Positions 2,842 through 53,268 of a stretch of 64,000 nt of DNA are shown piece after piece. Origin of the DNA: Naegleria gruberi. Its lineage: Eukaryota. Position numbers and translations under genes: made by a program. The notes beneath the pieces were generated by a model that made no database searches, had not been told where the DNA came from, and saw nothing but the letters and a program-made list of their open reading frames with translations. The stretch lies in assembly GCA_000004985.1 (NCBI GenBank), contig GG738856.1; one strand, 5' to 3'. Positions within the stretch are counted from its first letter, which is position 1, and each line of letters opens with the position of its first letter.

Positions 2842-5800
2842 ATGTTGACTGAAAATAATAATTATCAATCATCGGCAGCAGTTAGTTCTTCCTCTTCATC
2901 ATCAAAGAGACATCAACATCATGATGATGACGACAATGATTATGATGATAAATTTAAAAAGTTTTCTGATCCGACAGAGGCTGCCAAACACACTTTCAGA
3001 TCACTTGATCGAGTTCCAGGATCATCATTCACAATCAGATCTAATAACAATAATACCACTTCTGATAATAATAACAATGAAAATAATCCAATTGATAGTG
3101 GCTTTGGACAGAATCAAAGGAAATTCCCAGAAAAACCATCAGCACACAGAACACCACTACAACAAGTGGGTGACTTTTTCAATAGTTTGATATTCAGTTT
3201 ACTCTATGTTACTGCTGACACAAAGAAGAGATTTTATAGTTTCCTTGTTGGTCTGATTACTATTGCTATTGTTGTGTTTGTTGTCAGTATATTGTACAAT
3301 TCAATTCTGAAAGCAAATTTAATCTTCTTGAAATTATCTGAGGACAATGTTGGAGATGCTGATATAATGTTTACACCAAAATTCACAAATTTAACAACTA
3401 TACCTTTTATTAACAATACCGAGATTAGTGAAAAATTAGCTAATAGTCCTTATATTACTGGCACAACCCCTCGTTGGATTATATTTGCCAATCTACAGAA
3501 TAGAGATCAACCTCAAAAGAATATTAGTGGACTTCTCTTGATTTTGGATACTGAGAGAGAAGAACAATTGGGAATTGGTAGAATATGGCCATACAGACCT
3601 CTTGGAGAAGGAGAAATTCATGTGAGAGATTCTATATTGCGAGCCATTGATGTGAAGCCAAATAGAGGGCAGAGAACTAATCTTGTAATTGATTTTGCCA
3701 GTTTGGCCAGTGCATTCTCTGGAAGTACTGAAGCCATACAGAATGGTGTGGATCCAACTCAACAAAATTTCGATCAAGCTCAATTATTGAGATCTCTTTT
3801 CATTTAAACTTAAAAGTGAAGGGTGAATCTTCTGTTGTTGATTCTATCACCTCCAATTATGCCAAATATCCAAGTGCTCTTGGTAACGTAATGATTATTG
3901 ACAGTCACTATGTAGGTCAAATAATTGAAGAGTCACTATTTGCCTCGCCCTCTACGCAGTTACTTTTGGAAATTACAGGAAATACTCAAAAAATCAAAAA
4001 CTTTTTCAAAACTTTCCCAATAGAACAGTACAGTTTAACTCTAGCAGGTCGACTGAAAGACAGATTCCCAACCTATCTCAAGAGTGATAATGAAAGAAAA
4101 CAAGCAGTTATTGGCATTACCAATGGTATGATGGATAGTATTGGAGTTGCTTATCCAGTCACTTACACTCTTCCACTTTTGAGTGCTTTAGATGGTACCA
4201 AATTTATTTCATTATTTATTGATCAAATCTTTATTGGAGTTGTTGTCATGTTAGCCATTTTGGGTATCATTTTGATTTTTGCCCTCCTTTTGGCCAATGT
4301 TGAGGAGAAAACCTATGAATATGGTATGTTGAGAGCCCTAGGTCTTCGTCAGTATTCTCTTATTCAGGTCATTTTGGCTCAATCCATGTACTTTGCCATA
4401 CCTGCCATCATTATTGCCATGGTACTTGCCTTCTTGGTAAATATTTTGGTTGAGTATGTATTACAAGTTGTTATCAGCACTCCAAGCTTGAATTTGTACT
4501 TCTTCTGGGCTGCAGTTGTAGTTCCAATTGCTCTTGGTTTTGGTATTCCTATTATTGCTAACGTTATTCCAATTAGACATGCTATGAGCAGAACTTTGAG
4601 AGATTCACTTGACATTGCCCATCAAACTTTCAATGAAACCACTGTCAAAATGATCAAACTTGAAGAATTAGGATTGGAACCATGGCAAACTGGTGTATCT
4701 ATTTTATTGGTTATTATTGGTTTTGTAGTTTACTATATGATTCCATATTCATTTATTTTCACTGATCTCCCACTCTTCTTCTTTATTTTGAATGCTATTC
4801 TATTGGGTATGCTTGTTGGATTGTGTATTATTGCTGTCGTATTAGAACCATTCTTTGAGAAGATTATATTGAATTTAATCTTGTGTGGACCTGAAAGAAA
4901 ATTGAAGACTTTAATTTCCAAGAATTTGGCTGGTCACCGTAAACGTAGTAGAAAGACCTTCCTCATGTTTACACTCTCAGTTGCCTTTATTGTTTTTGCT
5001 GGTGTTGTCTTTTCATTGCAATCAGCTAATATTCGTGCAAATGTTGAGGCTTTCCTTGGTGCAGATATTGTTGTCATTTCAACCAATTCACGTTATTCAC
5101 TTCCTAAAGACAAACTCAATGAAGCTATTGCACTCCAAAACAGTAGAAACAAAACGATAGAAGCACCAGTTAAGGGACATGCCTACCAATCATTCAGTAT
5201 TGCTAATATTCCGTTCTTTACTGGTTCTAGATTCTCCTCACTTGCCTATTTCCCTAACAGAAGAGTTGTTTATAATGCAGTGGACAGAAACTTTTTGAGT
5301 GTTGTCAAGAGCAAGTACTTCCTCTACACATACATTGATTCAAGTTTCACGTACAATATCACAGATGAGAAACCAGATGTTTTCCAAAGTTTGTACGATA
5401 ATGCAGGACAAGCTCTTGTTGATGGAGAAAAGGTTGGATTCGCACCAAGTATTGTATACAGTGGTGTAAAACTCAATTTCGAAGACAATTATACCTTAAC
5501 CTTTGATCCAGCCTCTCAATACTCACAATACATTGATATTGTAGCTTCTGAAGCTATGAGACCATCTGTTGGTATTGGAATTAAGACTCCAACCGATTTG
5601 AGATTCTCTGGCATCAATAGTAAGACAGGAACTCAAAATTATGTAGATTTTATTGGCAAGTCAAGATGCCTTGCCTATAAGGTCCCTGGTTTCTTCTATT
5701 CTTCATATGAACTTACTGCTTCTGGTTCTCCTGTTATTATTACTATGGATGCATACAAGAAAATTGCAAGATCAGTCGCTAAATCAGTTGGTCTCACTAC

Positions 5801-6377
5801 TTATAATGATGAAGTTTACTATCAAAAGCTCTTTATCAAGCTCAAAGATGAAATTACAACCTTTGAAGTACAAGACGTTTTCAATGCCTTACAAGCTTCT
5901 GTTAGTTCTGATTTCACAAGTATTCAAAATGTCAGAGATTTGGTTGGTAGTACAGAGACTGCTACACTTGTCCTTATGGCTTTCTTCAACATTGTTGCTG
6001 CTATTGCCATCATTTTGTGCTTCTTCATGTTGGCTGTTTCATTCACTGCTAACGTTAGAGATAACTCTTGGGAATTTGGTGTGTTGAGATCTATTGGTTT
6101 GTCTGTCAATGCACTCATTCGTGCCTATATTTATGAAGCTCTTTGCTTGGTCATTTCGGCCTTTATTTCTGGTACTGTGATTGGTTGTGTAATTGCCTTG
6201 ACATTAACAGCTCAGTTCAACTTGTTCTTGGAGATGCCGTTCCAATTCGATTTCCCATACTACCTCTTCTTCTCTATTCTTATCATGGCTCTCATTTGTG
6301 CCATTCTGGGTAGTTACTTGCCTGCTAGAAATTTGAGAAAGAAGGAAATTGCTCTCGTCATTCGTGGAGCTGAATAA
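2842..6377 (+). CDS. FtsX-like permease family (DUF214/MacB-like) membrane protein with two FtsX domains. ORFs 2842..3807 and 3816..6377 are joined by an apparent +/-1 frameshift near 3732-3815.
   Basis: N-terminal TM (FYSFLVGLITIAIVVFVVSILY) plus an extracellular region in ORF1. ORF2 has two FtsX 4-TM modules (GMLRALGLRQYSLIQVILAQS... and NSWEFGVLRSIGLSVNALIRAYIYEALCLV...PARNLRKKEIALVIRG). No GT...AG candidate lies between the two frames, so this is a frameshift rather than an intron. Confidence 0.75.
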
Positions 6378-17315: not shown

Positions 17316-18433
17316 TTAAATATAGAATTCATTAAGTGATGTTAATAATTTTGCTTCATCACTAATTCGATTGGCATAAACATAGAGTGATGTTAATTGT
17401 TTCATTCCACTTATGAACTTGGCTCCTTCATCACCAATTTCATTGTAACATATATCAAGTGATGTTAATTGTTTCATTTCACTTATCAATTTGGCTCCTT
17501 CATCAAGAATTATATTGTTAGAAATATTAAGTGATGTTAATTGTTTCATTCCACTGATGAATTCGGCTCCTTCATCATAAATTAGATTGTTAGAAATATC
17601 AAGTGATGTTAATTGTTTCATTTCACTTATGAATTTGGCTCCTTCAACACCCATTGGATTGCTAGAAATATCAAGTGATGTTAATTGTTTAATCTCGCTT
17701 AGATATTTGGCTCCTTTATCATCAATTCCACTCTTATAAATAGTAAGTGATGTTAATTGTTTCATTTCACTTATCAATTTGGCTCCTTCATCACTAATTT
17801 CATTCTTAGAAATATTAAGTGATGTTAATTGTTTCATTCCACTTATGAGTTTGGCTCCTTCAACACCAATTTCATTCTTAGAAATATCAAGTGATGTTAA
17901 TTGTTTCATTTCACTTATAGATTTGACTCCTTCATCATAAATTAGATTTCCAGAAATATCAAGTGATGTTAATTGTTTCATTTCACTTATTAATTTGGCT
18001 CCTTCAACACCAATTCCATTCTTAAAAATATTAAGTGATGTTAATTGTTTCATTTCACTTATTAATTTGGCTCCTTCTACACCAATTTGATTGTCAGAAA
18101 TATCAAGTGATGTCAATTGTTTAATCTCACTTATGAATTTGCCTCCTTCTACACCAATTTCATTGACACCAATACTAAGTGATGTTAATTGTTTCATTTC
18201 ACTTATGTATTTGGCTCCTTCCACACCAATTTCATTGTAATATATATAAAGTGATGTTAATTGTTTCATTTCACTTATGTATTTGGATCCTTCTACACCA
18301 ATTCGATTATTACATATATTAAGTGATGTTAATTGTTTCATTTCACTTATGGGTTTGGCTCCTTCATCACCAATTCGATTGTTAGAAATATCAAGTGATG
18401 TTAATTGTTTCATTTCACTTATGAATTTAGCTC
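17316..18433 (-). CDS. RNI-type leucine-rich-repeat protein (24-aa repeat ISEMKQLTSLDISNNRIGDEGAK). 5' partial, running into the assembly gap.
   Basis: At least 15 tandem 72-nt/24-aa LRR units. The ORF continues into the N run at 18434. Confidence 0.75.
17330..18433. repeat. tandem 72-nt coding repeat (LRR units)
   Basis: The motif agtgatgttaattgtttcat recurs with period 72 nt. Confidence 0.8.
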
Positions 18434-19088
18434 NNNNNNNNNNNNNNNNNNNNNNNNNNNNNNNNNNNNNNNNNNNNNNNNNNNNNNNNNNNNNNNNNNN
18501 NNNNNNNNNNNNNNNNNNNNNNNNNNNNNNNNNNNNNNNNNNNNNNNNNNNNNNNNNNNNNNNNNNNNNNNNNNNNNNNNNNNNNNNNNNNNNNNNNNNN
18601 NNNNNNNNNNNNNNNNNNNNNNNNNNNNNNNNNNNNNNNNNNNNNNNNNNNNNNNNNNNNNNNNNNNNNNNNNNNNNNNNNNNNNNNNNNNNNNNNNNNN
18701 NNNNNNNNNNNNNNNNNNNNNNNNNNNNNNNNNNNNNNNNNNNNNNNNNNNNNNNNNNNNNNNNNNNNNNNNNNNNNNNNNNNNNNNNNNNNNNNNNNNN
18801 NNNNNNNNNNNNNNNNNNNNNNNNNNNNNNNNNNNNNNNNNNNNNNNNNNNNNNNNNNNNNNNNNNNNNNNNNNNNNNNNNNNNNNNNNNNNNNNNNNNN
18901 NNNNNNNNNNNNNNNNNNNNNNNNNNNNNNNNNNNNNNNNNNNNNNNNNNNNNNNNNNNNNNNNNNNNNNNNNNNNNNNNNNNNNNNNNNNNNNNNNNNN
19001 NNNNNNNNNNNNNNNNNNNNNNNNNNNNNNNNNNNNNNNNNNNNNNNNNNNNNNNNNNNNNNNNNNNNNNNNNNNNNNNNNNNNNNNN
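18434..19088. other. assembly gap (655 N)
   Basis: Run of n. Confidence 1.
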
Positions 19089-19148: not shown

Positions 19149-20486
19149 TTAACAAAAGTAGAAATTTATCAAATCTGGAAGTTTTGAAAGCAATTCCAAT
19201 GAATCATCATTCACTGGATTGTTACAAATATCCAATTGAGTTAATTGATGCATTTGAGCAAGTGATTCAGCTCCATCATTTCCAACTCTATTGTCATTTA
19301 TCAAAAGTTCAGTCAATTTGGACATTCCAATAATTAAACCCGTTCCAATATCACCAATTTCATTCTCTCCAATGTCAAGATATAATAATTGGTCCAATTT
19401 ACTTATTGACTTCATTCCCTCATCGCCAATTTCATTGGTATTGATATCTAATTTTGTGAGTTGACTCAATTTGCTTAATGACTTGGCACCTTCTCCGCTA
19501 ATTCGATTATGAGAAATGTCAAGTTCAGTCAATTGTTCCATTATTCCAATATAGTGAGCTCCTTCGTTGCCAAGTACATTGTATCGAATATTAAGTTTAG
19601 TCAATTGATACATTTCACTAATAGCTTTGGATCCATAAGAGCCAATTTCATTATGACTAATTTCTAAGGTGGTCAATTGCTTCATCTCACTAATCAACCT
19701 TGCTCCTTCATCTCCAATTTTACAAGAGCTGATATTAAGGCAAATTAAATTATTGATGTGAAAAAGTGATTTAATGCCCTCAACTCCAATGTGATTTTCA
19801 GAAATTGAAAGATTGGTCAATTTGGTCATCCCACCAATATAACTGGCACCTTCATTGCCTATAAAATTGTTACTGATGTCGAGATCAGTTAATTGAGTCA
19901 TTTCACATATTGATTTGGTTCCTCCTGCATTGATATTGTTTCTGCTAATATTTAGTTTGGTCAATTGAGTCATTTCTCTAATAATTTTTGAACCTCTTTC
20001 AAGTAATTGATTATTGCTGATATCAAGGTCGGCCAAATGAGCGAGATTGCTTATCATATTGGCTCCCTCTGCATTTACCAACCATGAACTAACATCAAGT
20101 TTAGTTAATTTTCCACACATTCGAATAAAATTGCACAACTTTACAGTATCGCTAACTAATGTACCTATTCCAATTTTCATACTCGAAAAACATTCCAAGA
20201 ATTGACTCTTTCTCATCAAGTCAAACATTTCATCATTCCAATGATCCTTGTCAATGTAGTACTGAAATTCAATTGACAGTTTGGCATGCCGTTTAATACC
20301 TGCCATCCACTGCTTGGAAATTAGTACACAACTAGAGAGTATAAATTTCCAATCTCCGTTCAAATAGTTAATTATTTCATAGCAAATGTCATCAGAGAAT
20401 ATTTGATGGCTATCGGAAGGAATTTCAATCTCATAAAACATCTGATGTTTATCAAAAGCAAAATCTTCGGCTGGTAATTGATACAT
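19149..20486 (-). CDS. F-box/LRR (RNI-type) protein
   Basis: N-terminal F-box-like IFSDDICYEIINYL...LISKQW followed by about 12 LRRs with the GxEGAK motif. ATG at 20486. Confidence 0.8.
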   Translation of the reverse strand: MYQLPAEDFAFDKHQMFYEIEIPSDSHQIFSDDICYEIINYLNGDWKFILSSCVLISKQWMAGIKRHAKLSIEFQYYIDKDHWNDEMFDLMRKSQFLECFSSMKIGIGTLVSDTVKLCNFIRMCGKLTKLDVSSWLVNAEGANMISNLAHLADLDISNNQLLERGSKIIREMTQLTKLNISRNNINAGGTKSICEMTQLTDLDISNNFIGNEGASYIGGMTKLTNLSISENHIGVEGIKSLFHINNLICLNISSCKIGDEGARLISEMKQLTTLEISHNEIGSYGSKAISEMYQLTKLNIRYNVLGNEGAHYIGIMEQLTELDISHNRISGEGAKSLSKLSQLTKLDINTNEIGDEGMKSISKLDQLLYLDIGENEIGDIGTGLIIGMSKLTELLINDNRVGNDGAESLAQMHQLTQLDICNNPVNDDSLELLSKLPDLINFYFC

Positions 20487-20530: not shown

Positions 20531-21738
20531 CTAGTATTTATTTGAAAAGTAAGAAGAATTGGTGACATCACTTGGTTTTGGTCTATCTTCAGGATTCTTC
20601 TTTAACATTTGCATGACCATATCTACCAATTCAATGGAACAATTTGGAGAGCACTTGATAATATTTTCTCTGACAAGATTTTCTACATCCTTTTCGCTGG
20701 ACATGAGATTGAGATTGAGTTGACGTCTTTGGTGTTCCTTCAAATAGAGTTGAGTAATGCAAGTTTGTCTATCACCAGTCAGGCATTGATAGGCAGTTAC
20801 ACCAAGAGCGAAAATGTCTGTTTGGAAACAATTCTTACCTTGAACAATTGCTTCCCAACTCATGTAGATTGGTGTTCCAGCAAAGCCCATTTGAGTACTG
20901 AGTAGAGTATTTGCATCTCCTGTGACCAATGCTTGACTCAAATTAATATCACTACTGTCTGAAACTCTGGAAATGTTTGCATTATTACTAGTTGCTCCAC
21001 TAGTGGAATTTCTACCTTTCTTTGCCAAACCAAAATCACCCAATACAATATGAATCTGAGAACGGTGATAGTCAAAACTCTTGATAAATATGTTGGAAGG
21101 CTTAATATCTCTGTGAATCATATTGTACTCAGTGTTCATATAATCCAAAGCACTGCAAATTTGATAAATTAAGTGTGAGACGAGTGTTTCTGATAAAACG
21201 GTTTGGCCCAAGTAGCACTGATTGTTCATAAATTGTTCAAAATCTCCCAACTCGTAATAATCCATCTCCATACAAAGCATGTGTTGATTTGCATCAATAA
21301 AAACATCATTCACTCGTACAATATGTGGGTGTACCATTCTTAAAAGGTGTGTGGCTTCTCTGAGAGTTTGGTTAAGTTCATTCAAATCAGAGAAACGAAT
21401 AAGTTTGATGGCTTTCCATTGGAAGTTTTGCTTGGTATCTTGACCCTTGAAAACCAAACCAAATGAACCCTCACCAATTTTCATCAAATTAACAAATCTA
21501 TCAATGAGCATGGATTCACTTCCATTTAGTCTATTTTGAGAAGCATTACTGCTTAATTGAAGATTATTACCTGAAGAATCGTCCATCATACTCTTAGTTA
21601 GAGTCATGGCAGTTGAAACTTGAGAAATATTGAGGAAAGTTCTGATATTACCAGATCTATTAGAATATGGATCACTGCCACTCACAGGAGTTCCAACAAG
21701 ATTCAACTCAAAATTTTTATCCACAGAAAGAGTAAGAN
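20531..21738 (-). CDS. Ser/Thr protein kinase (5' end lost in the gap)
   Basis: GEGSFGLVFKG, AIK, HRDIKPSNIFI, GDFGLAKK and a SWEA-type activation segment. The N-terminus runs into the N gap. Confidence 0.85.
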
Positions 21739-21787
21739 NNNNNNNNNNNNNNNNNNNNNNNNNNNNNNNNNNNNNNNNNNNNNNNNN
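21739..21787. other. assembly gap (49 N)
   Basis: Run of n. Confidence 1.
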
Positions 21788-27312: not shown

Positions 27313-28293
27313 ATGGCATTCCTACTTTGTGATACAAACAACTTGTTCGATTTCTTACAAGTGCGCAATTCTTCCAATTCTATTGAAGCCAATGGACAAC
27401 CAATACATCATACAAACATTGACTTAATAGATGACACAAACATGTTTGACGATTGGTTCCATTGTGAAGATGAAAATCAACTGAATTCATCTCAACTCGA
27501 GTCTTCACAACATTCCTCTCCACCAAATGCCAAACCAACGAGCTCAAAAACGGCACATGCCAAACCAAAACAAATGAATACAGACTATCTGTATGGAGTC
27601 ATTGATCATGTGCTGCAAGATACCAAGTCAGAAATTGGGTTGAAATGGAGCATGTTGGAATGCTCTTCACAACTGGTCGACAGCTCTATTCAATCACCAC
27701 TCTCCGATTCGACACTAAGTATAAACAATGTCACTCCTAAAGAGAATTATGGAAGAAGTAGGTCAGGTTCAAGTAATACTACCAATACCACCACATGTAA
27801 CACTATCAATAGTAATCAATCCCAAGATATTGAATCGACGCAAACTACTACATTTAACAATATTTCAGAGTTTAATAATACTGTTGGTGATCATTTCATG
27901 CAGAATATGACAACATGTTTTGACAAGAATAATTATGTAAGCTATACTCAACCAACATGTATGCAACAACGAAAGATTAAAAAGAGCCAAAAGAAAAGGT
28001 CGAAAAGCATACAGTTTATTAGTGAGGAGGGAAATTCGTATCCACTTCAACTTGAATCATTTAATTGTTCACTAAGTAACTCTCCACTCAATAGAAATAA
28101 TCTCTCTGTTAAAAGTAACAAACGAAAGTCAATGTTCAATCAACCTTTCCAAAAGACAACCAAAGAGGAAAACCCAAATTCTTACAAGATTCGATTTTCA
28201 CACAATGTTTTTGAAGAGATCACCTTTAAAAACACAAATCCCTCTCAAAAATTCTACAAATTCAATGGAATTGGAGAAGATAAAATAAATTAA
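27313..28293 (+). CDS. hypothetical S/N/T-rich protein. Member of a two-copy family; the paralog is at 56046..57125.
   Basis: Shared blocks: YGVIDHVLQDTKSEIGLKWSM vs YQLIDEALKDTQSSLGLIWSKF, and C-terminal YKIRFSHNVFEEITFKN vs YKVRFGPNMFDEISIKKN. Confidence 0.5.
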   Translation: MAFLLCDTNNLFDFLQVRNSSNSIEANGQPIHHTNIDLIDDTNMFDDWFHCEDENQLNSSQLESSQHSSPPNAKPTSSKTAHAKPKQMNTDYLYGVIDHVLQDTKSEIGLKWSMLECSSQLVDSSIQSPLSDSTLSINNVTPKENYGRSRSGSSNTTNTTTCNTINSNQSQDIESTQTTTFNNISEFNNTVGDHFMQNMTTCFDKNNYVSYTQPTCMQQRKIKKSQKKRSKSIQFISEEGNSYPLQLESFNCSLSNSPLNRNNLSVKSNKRKSMFNQPFQKTTKEENPNSYKIRFSHNVFEEITFKNTNPSQKFYKFNGIGEDKIN

Positions 28294-28937
28294 TTCATTT
28301 CAGATTTTAAAATCGAATAGAGAAGTACATTATGAAATTTTCCATGATAGAATTCATCCTGCCTCAACAAGCCCTCCTTTACACATCCAATTCTCTCACA
28401 AATTTTAATGCTTTTCAAATTATCCTCTGCAACTCTGAATGTAATCTTATTGAGAGGAGATTTAATGGGTGAATTATCCAATTTTTGAAAGAGTTCTTTA
28501 CAAAAACATTGAACAGATCTTGTGGCAATTCCCTTTCCTTGAAATTCTTCACCAATCCAATAACCAATTTCACAATTACAATTCGACTTGTCAAAATTTT
28601 GAACTGCAATCACACCTGCTAATTGATTTTTATACCAAATACCACTTGTTAATACTGTTCGTTCATCTCCAATTAAATATCTAGAATTACTTCCATCAAT
28701 AAACATTTTCACTCCGAATGATGAAGAGATGGACGAAATGCTTGGAATAAACTCGAGAAGAAAGTCAAAGTTTTTCATTATTAATTGTTCAAGAGTTAAA
28801 AGATCAGCCTGTGTCAGGTTTTTCAATGTGATCTCTTCGTCCACTGTGCGACAGTAATAGATTGAAGACATTTGTTTTTGACATGAAAAACAATTACACG
28901 TCAAAACAAAATTGCAAGAAGTAAGAAATGGATTCAT
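28290..28937 (-). CDS. GNAT-family N-acetyltransferase (RimJ/RimL-like)
   Basis: GYWIGEEFQGKGIATRSV is GNAT motif A. The C-terminal ...KSIKICERIGCVKEGLLRQDEFYHGKFHNVLLYSIL is typical of RimL-type enzymes. Alternative ATGs at 28937 and 28871. Confidence 0.75.
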   Translation of the reverse strand: MNPFLTSCNFVLTCNCFSCQKQMSSIYYCRTVDEEITLKNLTQADLLTLEQLIMKNFDFLLEFIPSISSISSSFGVKMFIDGSNSRYLIGDERTVLTSGIWYKNQLAGVIAVQNFDKSNCNCEIGYWIGEEFQGKGIATRSVQCFCKELFQKLDNSPIKSPLNKITFRVAEDNLKSIKICERIGCVKEGLLRQDEFYHGKFHNVLLYSILKSEMN

Positions 28938-28975
28938 TGAATTATTGTTTATTTGATAAAGTTGGTGAAGCAACA

Positions 28976-29049
28976 GCCTTCCTAGCTCAGTTGGCAGTAG
29001 CGCTGTCCTAGTAAGACAGAGGTCTTGGGTTCGATTCCCAAGGGAGGCA
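28976..29049 (+). tRNA. tRNA-Thr (anticodon AGT), copy 1
   Basis: Acceptor GCCTTCC/GGGAGGC, TAGCTCAGTTGG D-loop, anticodon loop CTAGTAA, GGTTCGATTCC T-arm, TTCTTTT terminator. Identical to the copy at 33310. Confidence 0.9.
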
Positions 29050-29074
29050 TTCTTTTACTTAATTTTGAATTATA

Positions 29075-29182
29075 GAAACGTTCTCCGAGTGCTTTGAGAA
29101 CGATCTTCTTGCTGCTTTCCTTACATGAAAATGTTGTGAAATCATGAAAATGTTGTGAAATCTCATTGCTCACTTTGCTCAA
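29075..29182 (-). pseudogene. diverged duplicate of the 3' coding end of gene 33441..35072 (IVLKALGERFYNS vs AILKALRERFYQNS)
   Basis: Together with the tRNA-Thr, this forms a duplicated block. The sequence aacgttctccgagtgctttgagaacg here matches aacgttctctaagtgctttgagaatg at 33463..33492. Confidence 0.5.
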
Positions 29183-29203
29183 TTGAAAATTGTAAAACTG
29201 GTG

Positions 29204-31375
29204 TTAGTTTATTTCAACTAAATTTTCTAGAATCCAACAAACAACGCTTTCTGCCAAAACTTTGTCCATATATTTGTTCTTTTCAAGCACTCCTTCCACT
29301 AGTTCGTTGAATTTTGGGTTATTCGTGATTATTCGACGAACAATGTTGTCTATTTCACGTTTGGTGATTGAGAACATTTCATGCTCATTACTATCTAAAC
29401 AAAGCACTTTCTCAAGTAATTTAATTAGGTCAGAATGTTGCCATTGTAAAAGGTTTGATTTGTCCAAAAGAGTGTTATCAACATGGAAGTATCCCTTTGA
29501 TCTAATAAAAGAAGTTGATTTGGGAATTTTAAAGGTGTGTTTCTTTTGCGGAGATTCAATTGTTAAGATACGATTATTATCCATAGATATTCTCATATTG
29601 TCTATGTATTTCTCATTGTTCGGTTCGAGAATTGGAACGGTGTGGCTTTCCACATATCTGGTAGTACTGTCAAAATTAATACCAAGGTTCACAAAAGTTT
29701 TCCCTGTACCTTGAAACTTCTGTTGATACTGTCTATCTTCTATTTGTTGCAAAGTTATTGGTGCAGTACTATACAGTTTTATCTCGACTACCCATACAAA
29801 GGTCTCTTCCTCAATGACAAGATCAATAGTTCCAGTATTGATAGGGTGTTCGCAGGAAACTTTATACCCCATAAGAGACATTAGCTTTATAAAGGCATGT
29901 ATGATAATAAGCCTCAAACTTGACAATTCTCCAAGTGTGTGCATAGGGCAAACATGTAAAAAATGATTTTAGCTGATCTGCAAAACCATCACTGTCATTT
30001 GATCTAATATATTCTTGACAAACCCTGGCATGTTCTAACATCAGGTGTTCTTTGTTTTTTTCTACAAGGGCTTCAATAAAGGTAGACTTGACTTCCATGT
30101 TTGGGAAATCTAAATAATATCCATTTCCTTTTTTGCAAATAGTAAGAAGTCCAAGTTGTACTAGAAATGGTCCTGGAATAAATGTATTGGATGAAATAGA
30201 TACTGGTTCAAACCTGTCAAAGTTAGTTTCTGATATGGATGTATCTTTCCAACTTGCAATATCTACGCATTCTGCCCATGGCTTCTCACCAATGTATGTT
30301 GGTCTTCCATGCCTTATCCAGTAGGGTTTAAATTGGGTGCTTTGCTCCTTCAATAATTCGTTGATGTCAAATGGATTGAGTACTGTTGCATCAGAGCTAA
30401 ACGAAAAGCAATATCCATTATAGTATTCCACAATATCATCAATTAATTTTGATACAGATTGACCCTTTTTACAAGCTAGTGCTTCCAGATAATCACTAAA
30501 GTAGGTTTTCAAATCCTCTCTTGTATATCCATAAAGTGTGGAGGTTAGTGGCAGACTGGATACATCTTTTAAATGGTTTGCAGCTGAGAAGTGTAAGGTC
30601 TTGGTAAATTTGGCTACACCGGTGACAATGAATTTTGAAACGTTTCTATTATTCTTTACCTCATTGAAAAATTGTGACAACAGTTCAGAATTGTTTTTGA
30701 TTTGAAGCAATTCCTCCTCAGTGTGATCTTTCTCAATATACTTTACAATTGGAATGTCATACTCATCAACTAACACTGCAATTTTGCATCCTTGATTTGT
30801 TAGAGTGTTTACAACACGATTAAATTCCAATAACACAGTTTTCAGCTTGAAAGATTCGTTCATCTGTTCCACAGTTATTCCATATTTGTTGCAAACATCT
30901 TCAATGCCAAGAATTAAGTGTACAACAACGTCCCCAGCATTTTGAGCAAAGTTAAACCTAAATACAGCATGCTTGGTCCACTCTCTTTCTCTGTTCGTAC
31001 AAATCTTCAATCCCTCAAACAAATGTTTGGATCCCTCAAGAACTAGAGAGTAAATAATTGTAATTAAAACCTACTATGTAACATTATTTCCAAGATTAAT
31101 GACTTTCCAAACTTTCTAGGTCTTGCAATGAATATAGAGGAGGAAAATTCCAACATATCATGAATAACATCTGTTTTATCAACATATACCATCTTTTTGT
31201 TAATGATATCTAAAAAATTCTCAGAAGATACAGGAATCTTGTTTACATCAATGGTCGGTGCTGATGATTTCATCTCCTGATCGGTGGCTGGGGTTTCTTC
31301 AAGCTTTCGTCTTTTAGGTTGCACAATAACTCGCCTAACCTTCCCTGACCGAACGGGACCTTTTTGCTCAAGCAT
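29204..31375 (-). CDS. prokaryote-type predicted AAA-ATPase (PF09820-like N-terminal domain) fused to a PD-(D/E)XK nuclease domain (PF08011/DUF1703-like). Three ORFs are joined by one 32-nt intron (31043..31074) and one apparent 1-nt frameshift near 29900.
   Basis: YVDKTDVIHDML, FIARPRKFGKSLILEIML (Walker A) and LFEGLKICTNREREWTKHAVFRFNFA. The mid-domain has AVLVDEYDIPI. C-terminal YYH(A/T)FIKLMSLMGYKVSCEHPINTGTIDLVIEEETFVWVVEIK is the DUF1703 core. A basic extension SGKVRRVIVQPKRRKLEE lies at the N-terminus. The intron gtaggtttta...ctctag restores frame exactly. Confidence 0.7.
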
Positions 31376-31574
31376 TTTTTTTAAAATAATTTTAATTAAG
31401 GTTAAAACTAATGGCGGGAAAATGTGTCCATCAATGATTATTTCTTCTTGAAAAAATACTTCCTACCTGTTTAATATTAACAGTTTCAGATTTTTCAGTT
31501 TTAAATATAGTGGAACTTTCCAATGTTTCAAATATATTTAATAAATTAAATATTATTAAAATATTATTAAAAAA

Positions 31575-32579
31575 ATGAGCAAACGAATCAGACAAGATTT
31601 TGAAAATCATCAATTCATTAATTCGGAGGAAATATTCACTAATGATAATAATAATAATACGGAAGAGAAAGTAAAAAAGGTTGTGAAATTCGAACAAGAA
31701 ATATTTTCAGATGACATTTGTTTTGAAATAATTTCCATGATTGATAATTCGTGGTTTATTTTAAATAATTGTACTTTAATTTCAAAACAATTCTTTAATG
31801 TGATCAAGGAACGTTCAAAACTTTTTATTCAATTTAATAAGAAATTAACAAAGAAACAATTTCAATTATTTTTGAAAAGTCAATTTATGAATTGTATTGT
31901 TAATGTTACATTTTCTAGTTGGTTGCTTCACTCTTTGGAAGAAGCCAAATTCATAAGTGAAATGAAACAGTTGATATCACTTAATATTTCTGGCAATGAA
32001 TTTGGTGATGAAGAAGCCAAATTGATAAGTGAAATGAAACAATTAACATCACTTGATATTTCTGGCAATCGAATTGGTGATGAAGGAGCCAAATATCTAA
32101 GTGAAATGAAACAGTTGATATCACTCAATATTGGTGAAAATGAAATTGGTGATGAAGGAGCCAAATTGATAAGTGAAACCAGACAATTAGCATCACTTAA
32201 TATTTGTTTCACTCAAATTGGTATAGAAGAAGCCAAATTGATAAGTGAAATGAGACAATTAACATCACTTAATATTTCTGACAATCGAATTTGTGTAGAA
32301 GGAGCCAAATGGATAAGTGAAATGAGACAATTAACATCACTTGATATTTCTGGTAATCGAATTGGTGATGAAGGAGCCAAAACCATAAGTGAAATGAAAC
32401 AATTAACATCACTTGATATTTCTTACAATCGAATTGGTGATGAAGGAGCCAAATTCATAAGTGAAATGAAACAGTTGATATCACTCAATATTCGTGGCAA
32501 TCGAATTGGTGATGAAGGAGTCAAATATATAAGTGAAATGAAACAATTAACATCACTTACATATAAGGGATTAAATTGA
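31575..32579 (+). CDS. F-box/LRR (RNI-type) protein; the C-terminal end is possibly truncated or frameshifted
   Basis: IFSDDICFEIISMI...LISKQFF F-box-like, then about 9 repeats of ISEMKQLTSLDISGNRIGDEGAK. Confidence 0.75.
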   Translation: MSKRIRQDFENHQFINSEEIFTNDNNNNTEEKVKKVVKFEQEIFSDDICFEIISMIDNSWFILNNCTLISKQFFNVIKERSKLFIQFNKKLTKKQFQLFLKSQFMNCIVNVTFSSWLLHSLEEAKFISEMKQLISLNISGNEFGDEEAKLISEMKQLTSLDISGNRIGDEGAKYLSEMKQLISLNIGENEIGDEGAKLISETRQLASLNICFTQIGIEEAKLISEMRQLTSLNISDNRICVEGAKWISEMRQLTSLDISGNRIGDEGAKTISEMKQLTSLDISYNRIGDEGAKFISEMKQLISLNIRGNRIGDEGVKYISEMKQLTSLTYKGLN

Positions 32580-33309
32580 GTGAAGGTTAAGCTTTCCAGA
32601 TCCCCAGTTTGAAATTTTTTTCTCATCCCTTAGTAACACTTTGATAAGTTATGGAATAATGTTTCATTTCTTCAAACAACACGGATCAATCTTCAGTATT
32701 GAGATTGCAAGTATGAAAGAATGACTGTTGAAAATGTCGATTCCTATCCTCCTCCATTATTATTCCATCCAAGCAAGATTTGAACAGGGCAATACATGAG
32801 GGCAGAGGGAGGTAAAAACATGGGGTGTGTAATTTTTATGACTTCCCTTATTGAATGATTGGAAGAATGTTTCACGTATTGTTTCGGTTTCCTTGAGTTT
32901 AATCTAGTAAGGAAATTTCTGCTTCCTAAGATAAAAATAATATTCCGTATGAGCGTGAAAAATTTTAAAGCAAAATCAACAACAAACTATTCCAAGACAA
33001 TTTTCTTATCCAAATTGGAGAGAAACTTCATTCAATGATTATCAATATCCAACATTTTGAAATACTGTTAAAAAAATTCCACTTTTGATTTCTCATTTCT
33101 CCACAATCAAAATTTATGTTTTTGATTGAATAGTGCTTCAAACGTTTTGAGATTTGAAATTGATTCTAATCATAAGAGAAGGATATTTTCCAAACCCTAA
33201 ACACGCTAAAAGCAATCAACTCATTGAGTAATGAAAGAAACCAATTCAGTGCTGTACATTAATATTTGTTTGTTGAAATTTCAGTGAGAGCTCAAAAGGC
33301 GAAGCAACA

Positions 33310-33383
33310 GCCTTCCTAGCTCAGTTGGCAGTAGCGCTGTCCTAGTAAGACAGAGGTCTTGGGTTCGATTCCCAAGGGAGGCA
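33310..33383 (+). tRNA. tRNA-Thr (anticodon AGT), copy 2
   Basis: Identical 74-nt sequence to 28976..29049, including 10 nt of 5' flank. Confidence 0.9.
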
Positions 33384-33440
33384 TTCTTTTACGGTGAAAT
33401 CCTCTACATTGTTTTGCATTTTTTTTTATCAATTCTTCTT

Positions 33441-35072
33441 TCAATTATTTGAGTTTTGATAAAAACGTTCTCTAAGTGCTTTGAGAATGGCTTCAGCTCC
33501 TTCATGTAGAATTTCTTTAGAAATTTCGTCTCCATTTTCCCACTTACATTTATCCAAACCAAAAAAGGAAACATTAATCAATTCACAATACTCAACTGGA
33601 ATATTCTCCAAACATGGATTTTCAGCAATATTTAACATTCTTAAATATTTGAGTTTTGACAATTCTTTTGGAAGGTATTTGACATTATTTCTATAAAGAG
33701 AAATTGAAGCCAATTCACTAATTTCGGATAATTCCATTGGAAGGGTTTCGATTTGATTTTTATCAAACCAAAGAGCTCCCATTTGTTTACAATGACTCAA
33801 TTCAGGCGGAACTTGTGTTAACTTATTATTCATGATGAATAATTCATTCAAATTAAGTAAGGAGCAAATTTCTATTGGAAATTCAGATATTTGATTATTG
33901 TTCAAGTTGAGTCGAGTAAGTTTTTTCAAAATTGATAATCCATTGACATGTGTCAGTAAGTTATTGTCAAGATTTAAACTGGATATGAATGTAAAATCCA
34001 AAGTTTGAGTCAATTCTTTTGGAATTTCCAATAATTGTAAACTTTTCAATTCAATAGTGGAACCTCCTTCATTCAAAATCTTTTCCACTTTCATTTCCAT
34101 CCAATTTCCGTCATTATTCAGACTATTATCGTAAAGATTCTCCCATTGATTATTATCTTCCTGATATCGTTCTCCTTTAAATGCTCTTCCACGATCGTGA
34201 GAGCCACGACTTTCCCAAAACCCTTTTTCATTTTCCTTTGAAAATTTGAGTCCACATAAGAATTTACATCCTTTCCAGCCAAATAGTTGAGGAATCATGA
34301 GACGAATGTAACCATGCTCTTTGGAAATGAATTCTTCATTATATTTGAGAGCTAGAAATGAATCTGGTGTGTCCACGTCCTCTCTGTGGACATTCACAAC
34401 ATAACCATCAATTCCTGTTTGAATGAGAAATTTCCAGTCTGGATCTGGTTTTAGATAATTGATAATGGATTGAAAGGAAAGACCTTCCATGTGCATGTCC
34501 ATAACACTCCATGTGGTTACACAATGTAAATCAATTGTATATTTGGATAATGGGATAGATTCAAGTAATTCTGTGAGTGTGATTGTCTTGATCGGATGAT
34601 CATCTCCAAGGATTATTTCAAGTTCCCATGAGTTAATATCCATTTCTGGATGATACCCCAAATCGAGGACAGGCCACTTTTTAACTATTTTTTGGCCTTT
34701 TGGAAGTTTACTATTATCTTCTTCATCGAAAATTTGATAGTTTCCAGTGGTTTTAAAAGTACTTTGTCTTATTCTTTCAAGCTTTTCAATGTGAGATTCG
34801 TCTAATTTTAATTGTCTTTTTGCTTCGTTTACTGTTTTGATTTCCGAAATATTCTTTTGATCAGTGATTTTCTTTGTTACTTGATTCTTGGGTGACGATA
34901 TTTCTCTAGTTCTGCAAATATAAAAAGCCACCATTGATCCAAATATTATTAATGATGAAAATAATGGATTAGATTCAACTGGCAATATTGCAATGGTAAC
35001 GAAAACAAGACAGGCAAAAAATAGAAAATCAAGAGCTTGTGTGTTCATTGTATTTTTTTGATAAAAGTTCAT
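33441..35072 (-). CDS. membrane-anchored protein combining a sulfite-oxidase-family molybdopterin (Moco) domain (YedY/MsrP-like) with C-terminal leucine-rich repeats
   Basis: N-terminal TM ALDFLFFACLVFVTIAILPV. Moco-domain motifs IDLHCVTTWS, GIDGYVVNV and FLALKYNEEFISKEHGYIRLMIPQLFGWKGCKFLCGLKFS. After that come about 9 classical LRRs (LNLDNNLLTHVNGLSILKKLTRLNLNNNQISEFP...). ATG at 35072. Confidence 0.75.
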   Translation of the reverse strand: MNFYQKNTMNTQALDFLFFACLVFVTIAILPVESNPLFSSLIIFGSMVAFYICRTREISSPKNQVTKKITDQKNISEIKTVNEAKRQLKLDESHIEKLERIRQSTFKTTGNYQIFDEEDNSKLPKGQKIVKKWPVLDLGYHPEMDINSWELEIILGDDHPIKTITLTELLESIPLSKYTIDLHCVTTWSVMDMHMEGLSFQSIINYLKPDPDWKFLIQTGIDGYVVNVHREDVDTPDSFLALKYNEEFISKEHGYIRLMIPQLFGWKGCKFLCGLKFSKENEKGFWESRGSHDRGRAFKGERYQEDNNQWENLYDNSLNNDGNWMEMKVEKILNEGGSTIELKSLQLLEIPKELTQTLDFTFISSLNLDNNLLTHVNGLSILKKLTRLNLNNNQISEFPIEICSLLNLNELFIMNNKLTQVPPELSHCKQMGALWFDKNQIETLPMELSEISELASISLYRNNVKYLPKELSKLKYLRMLNIAENPCLENIPVEYCELINVSFFGLDKCKWENGDEISKEILHEGAEAILKALRERFYQNSNN

Positions 35073-38000: not shown

Positions 38001-39864
38001 ATCACCAGCATATTGGTTGAGACAAACACCTGGAGCACATTTAGCAGCTGGGTCAACATTTGGACTATTACAAGTGCAAGAGCCATCATAGGTACAAGTT
38101 CCTCTACCATTGCAAGTGGATGGGTTACAAGAAATTGAACAATTTGCACCAACAAATCCACCAATACACTTTTCACAATATTCACCAGCATAATTTCCAT
38201 CACATTTACATTTCAAACCTTGACATTTACCCTTGCCACCACAAGTACCAGCATCTGTACACACTGGTTCTTTACAATCATCTCCCTTAAATGCAGGACT
38301 ACAACTAGAACAATTACGAGAACCAGTCCAAGCAGAATCACATTGACAAGTATCTGGACCAACACACTTACCGTGTTGAGAACAAGCATATTGACTATTT
38401 CTATCAACACCATGGCATGAGAATGATTGACAAGATGATCCTTCGAAACCAGCCAAGCATTTACAAGCATTTGGACCTTGGCATGAACCCTTACCATTAC
38501 ATACTGATCTATCAGTAGCTGGAGTATTGTAACATATTGGAATTTCACAATTTGCACCAGTGTATCCAGCAATACACTTCAAACAGTAGGTGCTAGGATC
38601 AAAATTACCTCTACATTGACAAACGTCGACATCAGTACATTTACCATTGAAGGAACAACCACCAGCTTGTTCAGTCTTACCATTACAAGTTTTGATATCG
38701 CATTCAATTCCTGAATAACCAGCTTTACAATTACAAGTATTTGGAGCAACACATTTACCTTTGCCACCACAAACTTGAGCCTCATCTTGAGGTTTACCGA
38801 AACAAGTTGNNNNNNNNNNNNNNNNNNNNNNNNNNNNNNNNNNNNNNNNNNNNNNNNNNCAGTTCCATTCACACAGCACCATTCTTACATTGAATATTAG
38901 CACATGGATCAACTGGACCTGGTGGAGGATTTGGATTGCTTCCATTATTATTAGTATTATTATTACCTGGATTTGGATTAGGTGTTGGACTACTTCCATT
39001 ATTATTATTATTATTAGGATTTGGATTTGGGTTGCTTCCATTGTTGTTGGTGTTATTATTACCTGGATTTGGATTAACAACTTGATCACAATGAGGACCA
39101 GTGAAACCTTGTTGACATTCACATGTTCCATTCACACAAGTACCATTACCACAGTGAATATTAGCACATGGATCAACTGGACCTGGTGGAGGATTTGGAT
39201 TGCTTCCATTGTTATTAGTATTATTATTACCTGGATTAGGATTAGGTGTTGGACTACTTTCATTATTGTTATTAGTATTATTATTAGGATTTGGATTTGG
39301 ATTAGGGTTAGGATTTGGGTTGCTTCCATTGTTATTGGTATTATTATTACCTGGATTTGGATTAACAACTTGATCACAATGAGGACCAGTGAAACCTTGT
39401 TGGCATTCACATGTTCCATTCACACAAGTACCATTACCACATTGAACATTGGCACATGGATCAACTGGACCTGGTGGAGGATTTGGATTACTGTTGTTAT
39501 TATTTCCAAGAACTACTTCACAATGAACACCATCAAAACCTTGATTACATTCGCACATACCAGAGGTCATGTTACAAACACCATGACCGCAATCAGAATT
39601 ATTAGAGCACAAAGGTGCACAGAGAGTATCATTATAATAGTAGCTAAGACTTCCATCGCAGCCACATGTGCCATTAAGACACACCAAATTTACACCATTC
39701 ATAGTTTGATTGAGTACATTATCATAGAAAGGATAATTACACTCAGAATCATTTTGGCACCCTTTCACTACAAAGCCATTAAGCAACAGCAGTGTAGAAA
39801 ACAGGGACACCAAAGCAAATACAAAAGTTAGCCTTGTTGTCTGCATATTTTTTCTTGAGGTCAT
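35082..39864 (-). CDS. giant secreted/type-I membrane protein: signal peptide, N/P-rich linker plus EGF-like module x3, tenascin-type EGF array, long Thr/Ser-rich beta-rich (Ig/TIG-like?) region, C-terminal TM. Interrupted by a 50-N gap.
   Basis: Signal peptide MQTTRLTFVFALVSLFSTLLLLNG. Repeated ...DPCANIQCGNGTCVNGTCECQQGFTGPHCDQV. A further EGF array (CNGKGSCQGPNACKCLAGFEGSSC...). C-terminal TM VAVNALMLILALVAVLMM. The frame changes across the gap. Confidence 0.75.
38810..38859. other. assembly gap (50 N)
   Basis: Run of n. Confidence 1.
38880..39520. repeat. three tandem copies of a coding repeat of about 265-277 nt (NPNP-rich linker plus EGF module)
   Basis: cacatggatcaactggacctggtggaggatttggatt recurs at 38903, 39168 and 39445. 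Confidence 0.8.
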
Positions 39865-43527: not shown

Positions 43528-44547
43528 TTAATGTAAGAGACGAGTCAAGTGTTTCATTCCCTTCACATACTTCACTCCTTCTTCCCCTATTCTGTTGAAA
43601 CTAATATCAAGAAGTCTCAATTGTTTCATTTCACTAATAGATTTGGCACCTTCAGGACCAATTCTATTTCCATCAATTCTAAGATCAGTCAAGTTTGGCA
43701 TTTGACTAATAGCCTTTGCTCCCTCATCTCCAATTTCATTATAACAAATATTGAGTGTGGTTAATTTATCTAGTTCACTTATAAAAATTGCTCCTTCTGA
43801 CCTTAGAGAATTAGTATAGGCTTTCAGATAAGTCAATTGCTTCATTTGGCTAATGGATTTTGCACCTTCAGCACCCAAATTATTTCCACAAATGTCAAGT
43901 TTAGTTAAATTTTTCATTTCACTGATACTTTTGATTCCTTCTTGATCTATATTACTGGAACTGATATTGAGGAACGTTAAATGATCCATGCCACTAATTG
44001 ATTTTGCACCTTCTGCGCAGAGATAATTTGCACTAATATCAAGTTCAGTCAATTTAGTCATTCCACTAATTAATTTTGCACCTTCTGTACCAATTTGACT
44101 CGAGTCAATGTATAGACTAGTTAATTGCTTGAATTCACTGACGATCTTTGCTCCTTGCAACCCAATTTCATTTCCGCCAACACAAAGTTTAGTCAAATTT
44201 CGCATTAGGCCAACAAGCTCCAAATACTTAATATCAAACACTTCCTCTACGGAAATAAATTTCAGAGATGTAAAACTCTCCAAAAATTGACTTTTCCTAA
44301 CAGCATTGAATTTGCTATCGGTAATGTTTTTGAATTCAATTGAAAGTTTTGCACGTTCATTGATCACATTTAAAAATTGCTTTGAAATGAGGGAACACTT
44401 GTACAAGATGAATTTTGGATTTTCAATATAGGATATTATTTCAAAGCAAACATCATCAGAAAATATTTCCTTCTTGCCGAGTTCGGTTTGCTGAGACAAA
44501 GGGGTTTCAACAAGTTCACTCATTTTTTTTGAGATGTCAAATTTCAT
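43528..44547 (-). CDS. F-box/LRR (RNI-type) protein
   Basis: IFSDDVCFEIISYI...LISKQF then about 9 LRRs with GxEGAK. Confidence 0.8.
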   Translation of the reverse strand: MKFDISKKMSELVETPLSQQTELGKKEIFSDDVCFEIISYIENPKFILYKCSLISKQFLNVINERAKLSIEFKNITDSKFNAVRKSQFLESFTSLKFISVEEVFDIKYLELVGLMRNLTKLCVGGNEIGLQGAKIVSEFKQLTSLYIDSSQIGTEGAKLISGMTKLTELDISANYLCAEGAKSISGMDHLTFLNISSSNIDQEGIKSISEMKNLTKLDICGNNLGAEGAKSISQMKQLTYLKAYTNSLRSEGAIFISELDKLTTLNICYNEIGDEGAKAISQMPNLTDLRIDGNRIGPEGAKSISEMKQLRLLDISFNRIGEEGVKYVKGMKHLTRLLH

Positions 44548-52814: not shown

Positions 52815-52887
52815 GAGACTGTAGCTCAGATGGGAGAGTATTCGTTAACCCAACGAATGGTCTTAGGTTCAAATCCTAACTGTTTCT
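52815..52887 (+). tRNA. tRNA-like gene with a Val(AAC)-like body but an aberrant anticodon loop (TAACCCA, A at position 33)
   Basis: Acceptor GAGACTG/CTGTTTC (one U-U mismatch), TAGCTCAGATGGGAGAGT D-arm, anticodon stem TTCGT/ACGAA, T-arm TTAGGTTCAAATCCTAA, T6 terminator. The loop lacks U33. Confidence 0.55.
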
Positions 52888-53268
52888 CTTTTTTAGGATT
52901 TCTTAATTTCGAAAGCAAGAAACCATACCACTACAAATCCATTAACACAATTTACAAATATACCAGCAACCCTTTCCAACCATACGTAAAGGGTGCACCA
53001 CATTACAAAGATATCAAATGTAGAATTTATTATTGTCATTCAATTCAAAATTGAAATTGACACATCGCTCTCTATCAATAAAATTCTAACGTAGCTCTTT
53101 CAATAAACGTTGCTATAATTAATTTATTTATTTACAATTTTCATTCCAGTTTTTCTTTTAGTTTTATTGAATGTGTATCAATTTCAATTTTGAATTGAAC
53201 GAGACATTAATAACGCAACGTTCTTTGCTTTTTTAAAGTATGATTAAGGGATTAATCCTTGGATATAA

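Follow-up and report, generated by a model that had tools for sequence, protein, structure and literature searches.

A probable local duplication of a tRNA-Thr(AGT) gene and the tail of its neighbour gene in Naegleria gruberi

Two copies of a short segment that carries a tRNA-Thr(AGT) gene were characterized in a window of 64,000 nt of Naegleria gruberi NEG-M DNA (contig GG738856.1). The copies are collinear, in direct orientation and 4334 nt apart. We consider it likely (probability about 0.7) that they were generated by a lineage-specific local duplication at the DNA level, and that the interior between them is neither a mobile element nor a freshly acquired island. The copied unit would span approximately 230 bp (33298-33524, possibly extending to about 33600) and would contain the tRNA gene, its 12-nt leader, a short spacer and the final codons of a convergently transcribed gene, designated Moco-LRR. 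Copying would have occurred once, from the downstream segment (copy B) to a site 4.3 kb away, which became copy A. An old segmental duplication was among the possibilities raised in an earlier note on this DNA, and the features of the copies agree with it: orientation and order are the same, similarity continues past the tRNA, and one copy is found in an intact context while the other is truncated and contains indels. The locus would then be a further example of tRNA families growing by small local duplications with tRNA genes at the breakpoints, and the impression of a tRNA-targeted island is corrected.

The repeat pair

The cores of the two copies, both on the plus strand, occupy 28964-29058 (copy A) and 33298-33392 (copy B) and are identical at 94 of 95 bases (blastn E = 1.4e-42). 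Each is composed of a 12-nt 5′ leader, a 74-nt tRNA-Thr(AGT) gene and a 9-nt trailer. ARAGORN and Rfam (53.9 bits each) confirmed what had been noted before, that the two tRNA genes, located at 28976-29049 and 33310-33383, are identical. The trailer, TTCTTTTAC, is the same in both copies, and the leaders (GGTGAAGCAACA in copy A and GGCGAAGCAACA in copy B) contain the sole mismatch of the repeat, at position -10, which is T in copy A and C in copy B. A shared 5′ flank of 10 nt had been described earlier; a flank is indeed shared, but the one described took in the first base of the tRNA, and the true match is 11 of 12 nt. Alignment of the flanks revealed no similarity between the copies upstream of position -12.

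An A-box (TAGCTCAGTTGG) and a B-box (GGTTCGATTCC) were found in the tRNA-Thr copies, and a TTTT terminator run is present at +4 to +7 in both. Judged by cloverleaf, internal boxes and T-run, both copies are structurally intact genes at the sequence level. Their mature products are identical, and only pre-tRNA leaders that span position -10 (T/C) distinguish them. The duplication would have provided the cell with a second putative tRNA-Thr gene, and purifying selection probably keeps the two genes identical. A short gene-conversion tract may have contributed, since 20 of the 21 nt that immediately flank the tRNA are identical, compared with a background divergence of 22% (binomial P = 0.04). 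Two tRNA-Ile(AAT) genes within the window have no flanks in common, which shows that shared flanks are not a general feature of tRNA genes in this window. Exact-pattern scans of JGI metagenome contigs with the tRNA-Thr sequence, and with the tRNA plus trailer, gave no match.

Similarity of the copies continues collinearly for approximately 90 nt into a gene tail, and the limitation to the tRNA itself, which the earlier note had named as counting against its own proposal, is not seen. In copy B this tail belongs to the intact Moco-LRR gene (33441-35072, minus strand; Oxidored_molyb and LRR domains by Pfam), an uninterrupted ORF of 543 codons that is contiguous with copy B and has orthologues, including N. 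lovaniensis XP_044541684.1 (53% identity). The fact that copy B runs into an intact gene implies that it is the parent and copy A the secondary copy. The gene is apparently missing from the protein set searched, and the window proteins of the LRR, Moco-LRR and nuclease ORFs had no exact match in the protein collection searched.

The corresponding part of copy A, 29050-29142 (minus strand), can be aligned with 33436-33524 over 86 columns, of which 78% are identical (KKIVLKALGERFYNS vs AEAILKALRERFYQNS), and it derives from the 3′-UTR and the last 28 or so codons of Moco-LRR. The alignment score was 33, compared to 12.1 +/- 2.0 (maximum 23) in 1000 shuffles, and a 29-nt core (29072-29100 vs 33459-33487) reaches 90% identity. 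The stop codon of the fragment has been lost, and a 66-aa ORF located there matched nothing in Pfam. The Moco-LRR fragment in copy A is decayed and functionless; at most, it may now serve as 3′-UTR for the DUF1703 gene that lies next to it.

Several differences mark the edges of this tail. A stretch of 52 nt (33393-33444), with a T9 run inside and TTCTTT microrepeats at its borders, is present in copy B only and has been deleted from copy A. Conversely, only copy A has, at its right edge, an exact 19-nt tandem duplication of CATGAAAATGTTGTGAAAT (two units, 29124-29161). Past 29142, copy A continues with the second tandem unit, after which 29172-29201 resembles 33571-33599 only marginally (p about 0.02, uncorrected), so that the fragment may reach 29201. 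The previous description of a diverged Moco-LRR 3′ end after each tRNA was borne out for 29050-29142, whereas its right limit at 29182 was not, the similarity beyond 29142 being marginal. A palindrome, CGTTCTC...GAGAACG, had also been ascribed to both copies; it is perfect in copy A, but its second arm matches at 6 of 7 positions in copy B (GAGAATG).

Genes between and beside the copies

Two genes occupy the interior, in divergent orientation. The first is a DUF1703 gene (29204-31375, minus strand; XP_002679894.1, NAEGRDRAFT_65093), whose product contains, in N-to-C order, an AAA-ATPase_like domain (PF09820; 54.3 and 51.3 bits, gathering cut-off 26.1) and a PDDEXK_9 nuclease domain (PF08011; 44.2 bits, cut-off 25.5). 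An alignment with five bacterial members showed that Walker A/B and PD-(D/E)XK catalytic residues are conserved, with G90 K91 S92, D193 E194 Y195 D196 and D507 E520 K522 being invariant. The gene has a 32-nt intron with GT..AG borders (31043-31074) and a 1-nt frameshift at a G4 run (29867-29870), which shifts the nuclease domain into another frame in the reference. The annotated protein ends at the frameshift and misses the nuclease half. The 246-codon frame 3′ of this site has remained open (chance about 4e-8), suggesting that the frameshift either arose very recently or is an error of sequencing.

Outside N. gruberi, homologues of the DUF1703 protein were bacterial only (28-32% identity), and all named ones were from Bacteroidota; PADLOC and NCBIfam gave no match for the protein. 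Its base composition is host-like, with GC3 (0.31-0.34) within the range of host genes. Extensions are present at the N-terminus (approximately 45 aa, basic and NLS-like) and at the C-terminus (approximately 150 aa), and the stop codon is located 3-60 nt from the edge of the copy A fragment. The gene is an old bacterial acquisition, long resident in the host. The family is known from Bacteroidota, Cardinium, Simkania and Rickettsia, and a copy of bacterial origin occurs in the Tribolium Medea element (PMC6387759). Like the bacterial proteins, the N. gruberi protein has both domains and is collinear with them over their full length. Features that set it apart from known members are its location in the nuclear genome of a heterolobosean, the intron, the terminal extensions and, in the reference, a nuclease half that is not in frame.

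An AT-rich intergenic region (31376-31574, 19% GC) separates DUF1703 from the second gene, which encodes LRR_6 (RNI-like) repeats (31575-32579, plus strand; Pfam E = 6e-40). It contains 8.7 copies of a 72-nt unit (TRF) and belongs to a native family with six members within the window. Identity is 83-85% with an array at 17354-18433 and about 66% with 43531-44469; the more similar array shows that local duplication is active in this region. The LRR gene is separated from copy B by a unique non-coding spacer of 718 nt (32580-33297, 32% GC) that contains no start-to-stop ORF over 59 aa, has no Rfam match and shows no similarity elsewhere in the window. The block had been said to hold only an ATPase-nuclease gene and an F-box/LRR gene. 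The count of two genes stands, to which the 718 ORF-free nucleotides should be added, but no F-box was detected in the LRR gene by Pfam at E <= 0.01. GC content of the block (0.28-0.36) is within the host range. A low-GC stretch at 18-19 kb of the window was rejected as a feature, as it represents Ns in a gap of the assembly.

Neighbouring copy A on the left is a gene for a GNAT (RimL-like) acetyltransferase (28290-28871, minus strand; Pfam Acetyltransf_3 E = 7e-15), annotated in N. gruberi as the shorter model XP_002679893.1. In NCBIfam, it matched weakly a model for L7/L12-serine acetyltransferase. Leaving aside the N. gruberi protein, its named homologues are bacterial (32-41% identity); closest among the other matches, at up to 44% identity, are metagenomic sequences without a name, and the matches included no protein of N. 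lovaniensis or N. fowleri. Bacterial-type genes are thus located on both sides of copy A. For annotation, the locus points to the missed nuclease half of DUF1703, the apparent absence of Moco-LRR from the protein set and the bacterial-type genes that flank copy A.

Alternative origins of the repeats

Transposable elements and islands that target tRNA genes include bacterial genomic islands and ICEs, and the TRE/DGLT-A retroelements of dictyostelids and Ty3 of yeast. The N. gruberi locus resembles such elements in that tRNA-bearing direct repeats enclose a few kb of DNA with one bacterial-type gene; unlike them, the block has neither a recombinase nor a reverse transcriptase, and its cargo includes a native gene. 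Site-specific integration, either of a prokaryote-type tyrosine-recombinase island with att duplication or of a TRE/DGLT-A or Ty3-type retroelement, could draw only on the link that generally exists between integration and tRNA genes, and on an integrase-domain gene near a tRNA gene in N. lovaniensis. The suggestion that the tRNA marks an insertion or target site is not positively supported by the locus. Pfam searches of all ORFs of the block and its neighbourhood detected no integrase, transposase, reverse transcriptase or gag/pol, and there were no LTRs or terminal inverted repeats above chance at the block ends, no poly(A) at the copy edges and no partial-tRNA att site, both tRNA-Thr genes being complete. 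The repeat comprises a whole tRNA, its leader and a gene tail, instead of a 3′ att core or a target duplication of a few bp. Given the host-like composition of the 4.1-kb interior and the mixture of a long-resident, bacterial-derived gene with a native LRR gene, it does not represent a foreign island, and integration of this kind is very unlikely. Equally improbable is a retro-copy of RNA, derived from Pol III read-through of the tRNA or from the 3′ end of Moco-LRR mRNA. The left boundary at -12 would lie near the expected Pol III start, but the T4 run and then the T9 run that follow the tRNA in copy B, ahead of the gene tail, should halt Pol III, the A9 run after the Moco-LRR stop codon suggests that the mRNA ends before the tRNA, and copy A has neither a poly(A) tract nor a short target duplication.

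The remaining explanations differ in what was moved. Insertion of the 4.1-kb segment into an ancestral GNAT, tRNA-Thr and Moco-LRR arrangement, at a staggered break whose fill-in duplicated a target of about 230 bp, is favoured by direct repeats that flank the segment in the way a target duplication would, by the proximity of the DUF1703 stop codon to the repeat edge, and by the absence of tRNA/Moco-LRR adjacency in both relatives compared. A target duplication of at least 230 bp would be unusual, and no donor or empty site was seen in these relatives, so we regard such an insertion as rather unlikely. In its strongest form, the repeats would be the footprint of an integration by which the bacterial DUF1703 gene, perhaps together with GNAT, arrived at a tRNA gene. 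The exclusively bacterial homologues of DUF1703 outside N. gruberi favour this, and as the same is true of GNAT, whose matches are of bacterial type, the rearrangement may be linked to gene acquisition. Nonetheless, the segment includes a native LRR-family gene, which implies that it was not raw bacterial DNA, and DUF1703 is host-like in composition and has acquired an intron and extensions at both termini; we consider this form improbable. If true, it would be a rare footprint of bacterial DNA integrating into the genome of a free-living protist, in which the duplicated tail gives the newcomer its 3′ end, and an empty site in a close relative could make the locus a documented integration junction of horizontal gene transfer. 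Tandem duplication of a 4.3-kb unit (DUF1703, LRR gene, spacer, tRNA and Moco-LRR tail) followed by deletion of the upstream 4.1-kb interior is also doubtful. Among segmental duplications, the tandem kind is the most common, and the contact between the Moco-LRR tail and the 3′ end of DUF1703, with the 19-nt tandem duplication found there, could be the tandem junction. Yet this scheme requires two events and a deletion that ends precisely 12 nt upstream of the tRNA, and no remnant of a second interior was found upstream of copy A.

Within the favoured local duplication, the mechanism that we tentatively prefer is a short patch, templated from copy B and pasted into a break between GNAT and DUF1703. 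The present sequence is predicted alike by this patch copying, by insertion of the block and by tandem duplication with deletion, here named in falling order of preference. tRNA genes occupied by Pol III are fragile sites and rearrangement breakpoints, and the left breakpoint at -12 would fit such fragility under every version of the mechanism. The presence of a tRNA gene at the breakpoint is shared with other eukaryotic segmental duplications that have tRNA breakpoints. In addition, the locus is similar to small local duplications of parts of genes, in which a short copy, containing a decaying gene piece, keeps the orientation of its source and the two are separated by a few kb of one chromosome; it differs from typical cases in that a complete and identical tRNA gene is kept beside the dead fragment.

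Related loci

The corresponding loci of N. lovaniensis and of a metagenomic relative share the Moco-LRR gene and no other neighbour with N. gruberi, and no tRNA gene was found beside Moco-LRR in either. Closer to N. gruberi is an environmental strain (98.4% identical), in which one contig has the same junction between GNAT and the copy A tRNA, including the copy-A-specific T at -10, suggesting that the duplication predates the split of that strain. This contig ends 18 nt past the tRNA trailer. Precisely where the 95-nt repeat ends, its sequence departs from copy A, and these last 18 nt match nothing in the window; if real, they represent a structural difference that the local-duplication model does not predict. 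A literature search found nothing specific on tRNA-associated elements in Naegleria or on the DUF1703 gene. As a separate observation, a gene with a Phage_integrase domain is located approximately 1.5 kb from a tRNA-Ser gene at the N. lovaniensis locus.

The tRNA-Thr repeat and its parent copy

Two identical 74-nt tRNA-Thr(AGT) genes (copy A, 28976-29049; copy B, 33310-33383) lie within a near-perfect 95-nt repeat (94/95 matches, 28964-29058 versus 33298-33392), composed of the tRNA, a 12-nt leader and the trailer TTCTTTTAC. At leader position -10, copy A has T where copy B has C, and no similarity between the copies was found 5' of position -12. Downstream, the alignment of 29050-29142 and 33436-33524 spans 86 columns with 78% identity and scores 33, versus 12.1 +/- 2.0 (maximum 23) in 1000 shuffles. 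On the minus strand, the aligned region covers the Moco-LRR stop-codon area and the final ~28 codons of that gene. These data confirm the earlier note's description of two tRNA-Thr genes with shared flanks and diverged copies of the Moco-LRR tail. Within the interval between tRNA and stop codon in copy B, a 52-nt stretch bounded by TTCTTT microrepeats is missing from copy A. In addition, an exact 19-nt tandem duplication (29124-29161) marks the right edge of copy A, past which similarity to copy B is only marginal.

The window also contains two tRNA-Ile(AAT) genes; these are not identical (two differing positions) and have no common flanks, indicating that flank sharing is specific to the tRNA-Thr pair. 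The immediate tRNA-Thr flanks are identical at 20 of 21 nt, above the background of ~22% divergence (P = 0.04), which suggests either leader/trailer constraint or a short gene-conversion tract.

Copy B is continuous with an intact 543-codon Moco-LRR gene (33441-35072, minus strand), which contains Oxidored_molyb and LRR domains. Orthologues of this gene were detected in N. lovaniensis (53% identity), the best match in the protein collection, and in an environmental relative (38%). No N. gruberi match was present in the collection, and the NEG-M gene set may lack an annotation for this gene. Because copy A is fragmentary, carries indels and lacks a stop codon, it represents a derived relic. Raw divergence in the non-tRNA part of the repeat is ~22%, and therefore the duplication event is old. 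An old duplication, one of two readings proposed previously, is thus supported by the collinear flank similarity and by copy A being a relic of copy B.

Origin of the duplication

The evidence as a whole is consistent with a single DNA-level event in the N. gruberi lineage that duplicated ~230 bp; the tRNA part would have been kept as a putative working second gene, and the duplicated gene tail has decayed. The Moco-LRR 3' end in N. lovaniensis is followed after 91 nt by a convergent 2OG-Fe(II) oxygenase gene; the 21.7-kb locus contains no tRNA-Thr and shares no genes with the window besides Moco-LRR. The Moco-LRR locus of the environmental relative resembles this arrangement. A contig from a close environmental strain (ENA ERZ929261, contig k127_269994; 98.4% identical to the window) confirms the junction of the GNAT gene, copy-A leader, tRNA and trailer. 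Its final 18 nt (contig positions 1-18) diverge exactly where the 95-nt repeat ends and have no match in either copy or elsewhere in the window. Either an assembly artefact (a contig tip or a mis-join across the repeat) or a genuine difference in structure would account for this end.

Ranking of mechanisms rests mainly on prior frequency. We favor a short templated patch that would have been pasted 4.3 kb away (about 45%). A less probable route is insertion of a 4.1-kb segment, with fill-in of a staggered break duplicating the flank. A further, improbable reading, for which the bacterial type of the two genes next to copy A leaves room, is that the repeats record integration of bacterial gene(s). 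The interior of the repeat pair (29162-33297) has no inverted terminal repeats at its bounds; it also includes 718 nt of unique non-coding DNA and an LRR_6 gene (31575-32579, plus strand) with 72-nt repeats, 83-85% identical to the array at 17354-18433. This gene is native and comes from a locally expanding family. Tandem duplication followed by deletion would also produce two copies, and we consider it rather improbable. An RNA retro-copy is unlikely since T4 and T9 terminators are present within the duplicated unit. The other earlier proposal, that the tRNA served as an integration target, was not supported: for site-specific or retroelement integration, each tested defining feature failed, and no transposase, integrase or reverse transcriptase was found among window genes. 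Overall, the short patch remains our preferred route, and the locus is an ordinary feature holding a modestly interesting, probably horizontally acquired gene.

Bacterial-type genes beside copy A

The DUF1703 gene in the interior (29204-31375, minus strand) contains AAA-ATPase_like and PDDEXK_9 domains, each above the Pfam gathering score. Its ORFs at 29862-31375 are 100% identical to the N. gruberi 'predicted protein' XP_002679894.1 (NAEGRDRAFT_65093, on a 602-kb scaffold). Excision of a 32-nt GT..AG segment (31043-31074) and one G at 29867-29870 yields a 712-aa protein that is collinear with bacterial members along their entire length, with conserved Walker A and B motifs and nuclease residues D507/E520/K522. 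The 32-nt segment falls within the Walker A region and is also an intron in the NCBI model, which stops at the frameshift. This predicted intron is far shorter than the mean of 203 bp published for the N. gruberi genome (41 Mb, 33% GC; PMC8296547), and the segment could alternatively be a disabling insertion. The 1-nt frameshift occurs at a G4 run, where XP_002679894.1 ends (29862-29870), and the database protein therefore lacks the nuclease half; the ORF at 29204-29944 encodes the PDDEXK_9 nuclease domain, including the catalytic D/E/K residues. Because the 246-codon frame past the frameshift remains open (chance ~4e-8), the frameshift probably either arose in sequencing or is a very recent mutation.

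Among the best 120 homologues, all except the N. gruberi protein itself were bacterial (28-32% identity), and all named ones belonged to Bacteroidota (Roseivirga, Prevotella, Bacteroidales and Cardinium). The family, known as DUF1703, is expanded in intracellular symbionts, and the Tribolium Medea element contains a DUF1703 copy of bacterial origin (PMC6387759). GC and GC3 of the Naegleria gene are host-like. The encoded protein is extended at both ends, by a basic N-terminal stretch and by ~150 aa at the C-terminus, neither of which matched anything in searches. We conclude that this gene is probably an old horizontal acquisition, either domesticated or decaying.

All homologues of the RimL-like GNAT gene immediately left of copy A (28290-28871, minus strand; XP_002679893.1) were of bacterial type, at 32-44% identity. 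Its matches included neither an N. lovaniensis nor an N. fowleri orthologue, and no Naegleria orthologue was present in the collection; GNAT is a second candidate horizontal acquisition. The GNAT and DUF1703 genes lie on opposite sides of the duplicated tRNA.

Surroundings and additional observations

The window is eukaryotic, with ~33% GC, and unremarkable eukaryotic genes surround the locus (actin, endonuclease V, RGS, Ras, a kinase, RCC1, REJ/EGF and six members of the LRR_6 family); the ORF at 27163 corresponds to XP_002679757.1. Together with the DUF1703 and GNAT protein identities, this match places the window in N. gruberi NEG-M. An 853-aa ORF (3816-6377) contains an FtsX-like permease domain, which is known mainly from bacterial proteins, and may be another bacterial-derived gene. 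The two LRR arrays with 72-nt units (17354-18433 and 31938-32564) are 14 kb apart in opposite orientation. A 655-N assembly gap (18434-19088) cuts into the first array, and the seemingly low GC of 13% at 18-19 kb is due to this gap; two shorter stretches of N occur at 21738-21787 and 38810-38859.

A tRNA-like gene called Gly(ACC) (52815-52888), 380 nt upstream of a tRNA-Ile(AAT), has A in place of the expected U33 and the lowest Rfam score (46 bits) among the seven tRNAs. The ACC anticodon appears to be unusual among eukaryotic tRNA-Gly genes; either a pseudo-tRNA or a wrong assignment may explain the call. In addition, the N. lovaniensis locus (PYSW02000078.1) contains a non-LTR retrotransposon ORF (Exo_endo_phos and RVT_1) and a Phage_integrase-domain gene ~1.5 kb from a tRNA-Ser(TGA), these features lying at 1659-6072, 19846-19928 and 21405-21722; this is a hint that the genus Naegleria may harbor tyrosine-recombinase elements close to tRNA genes.
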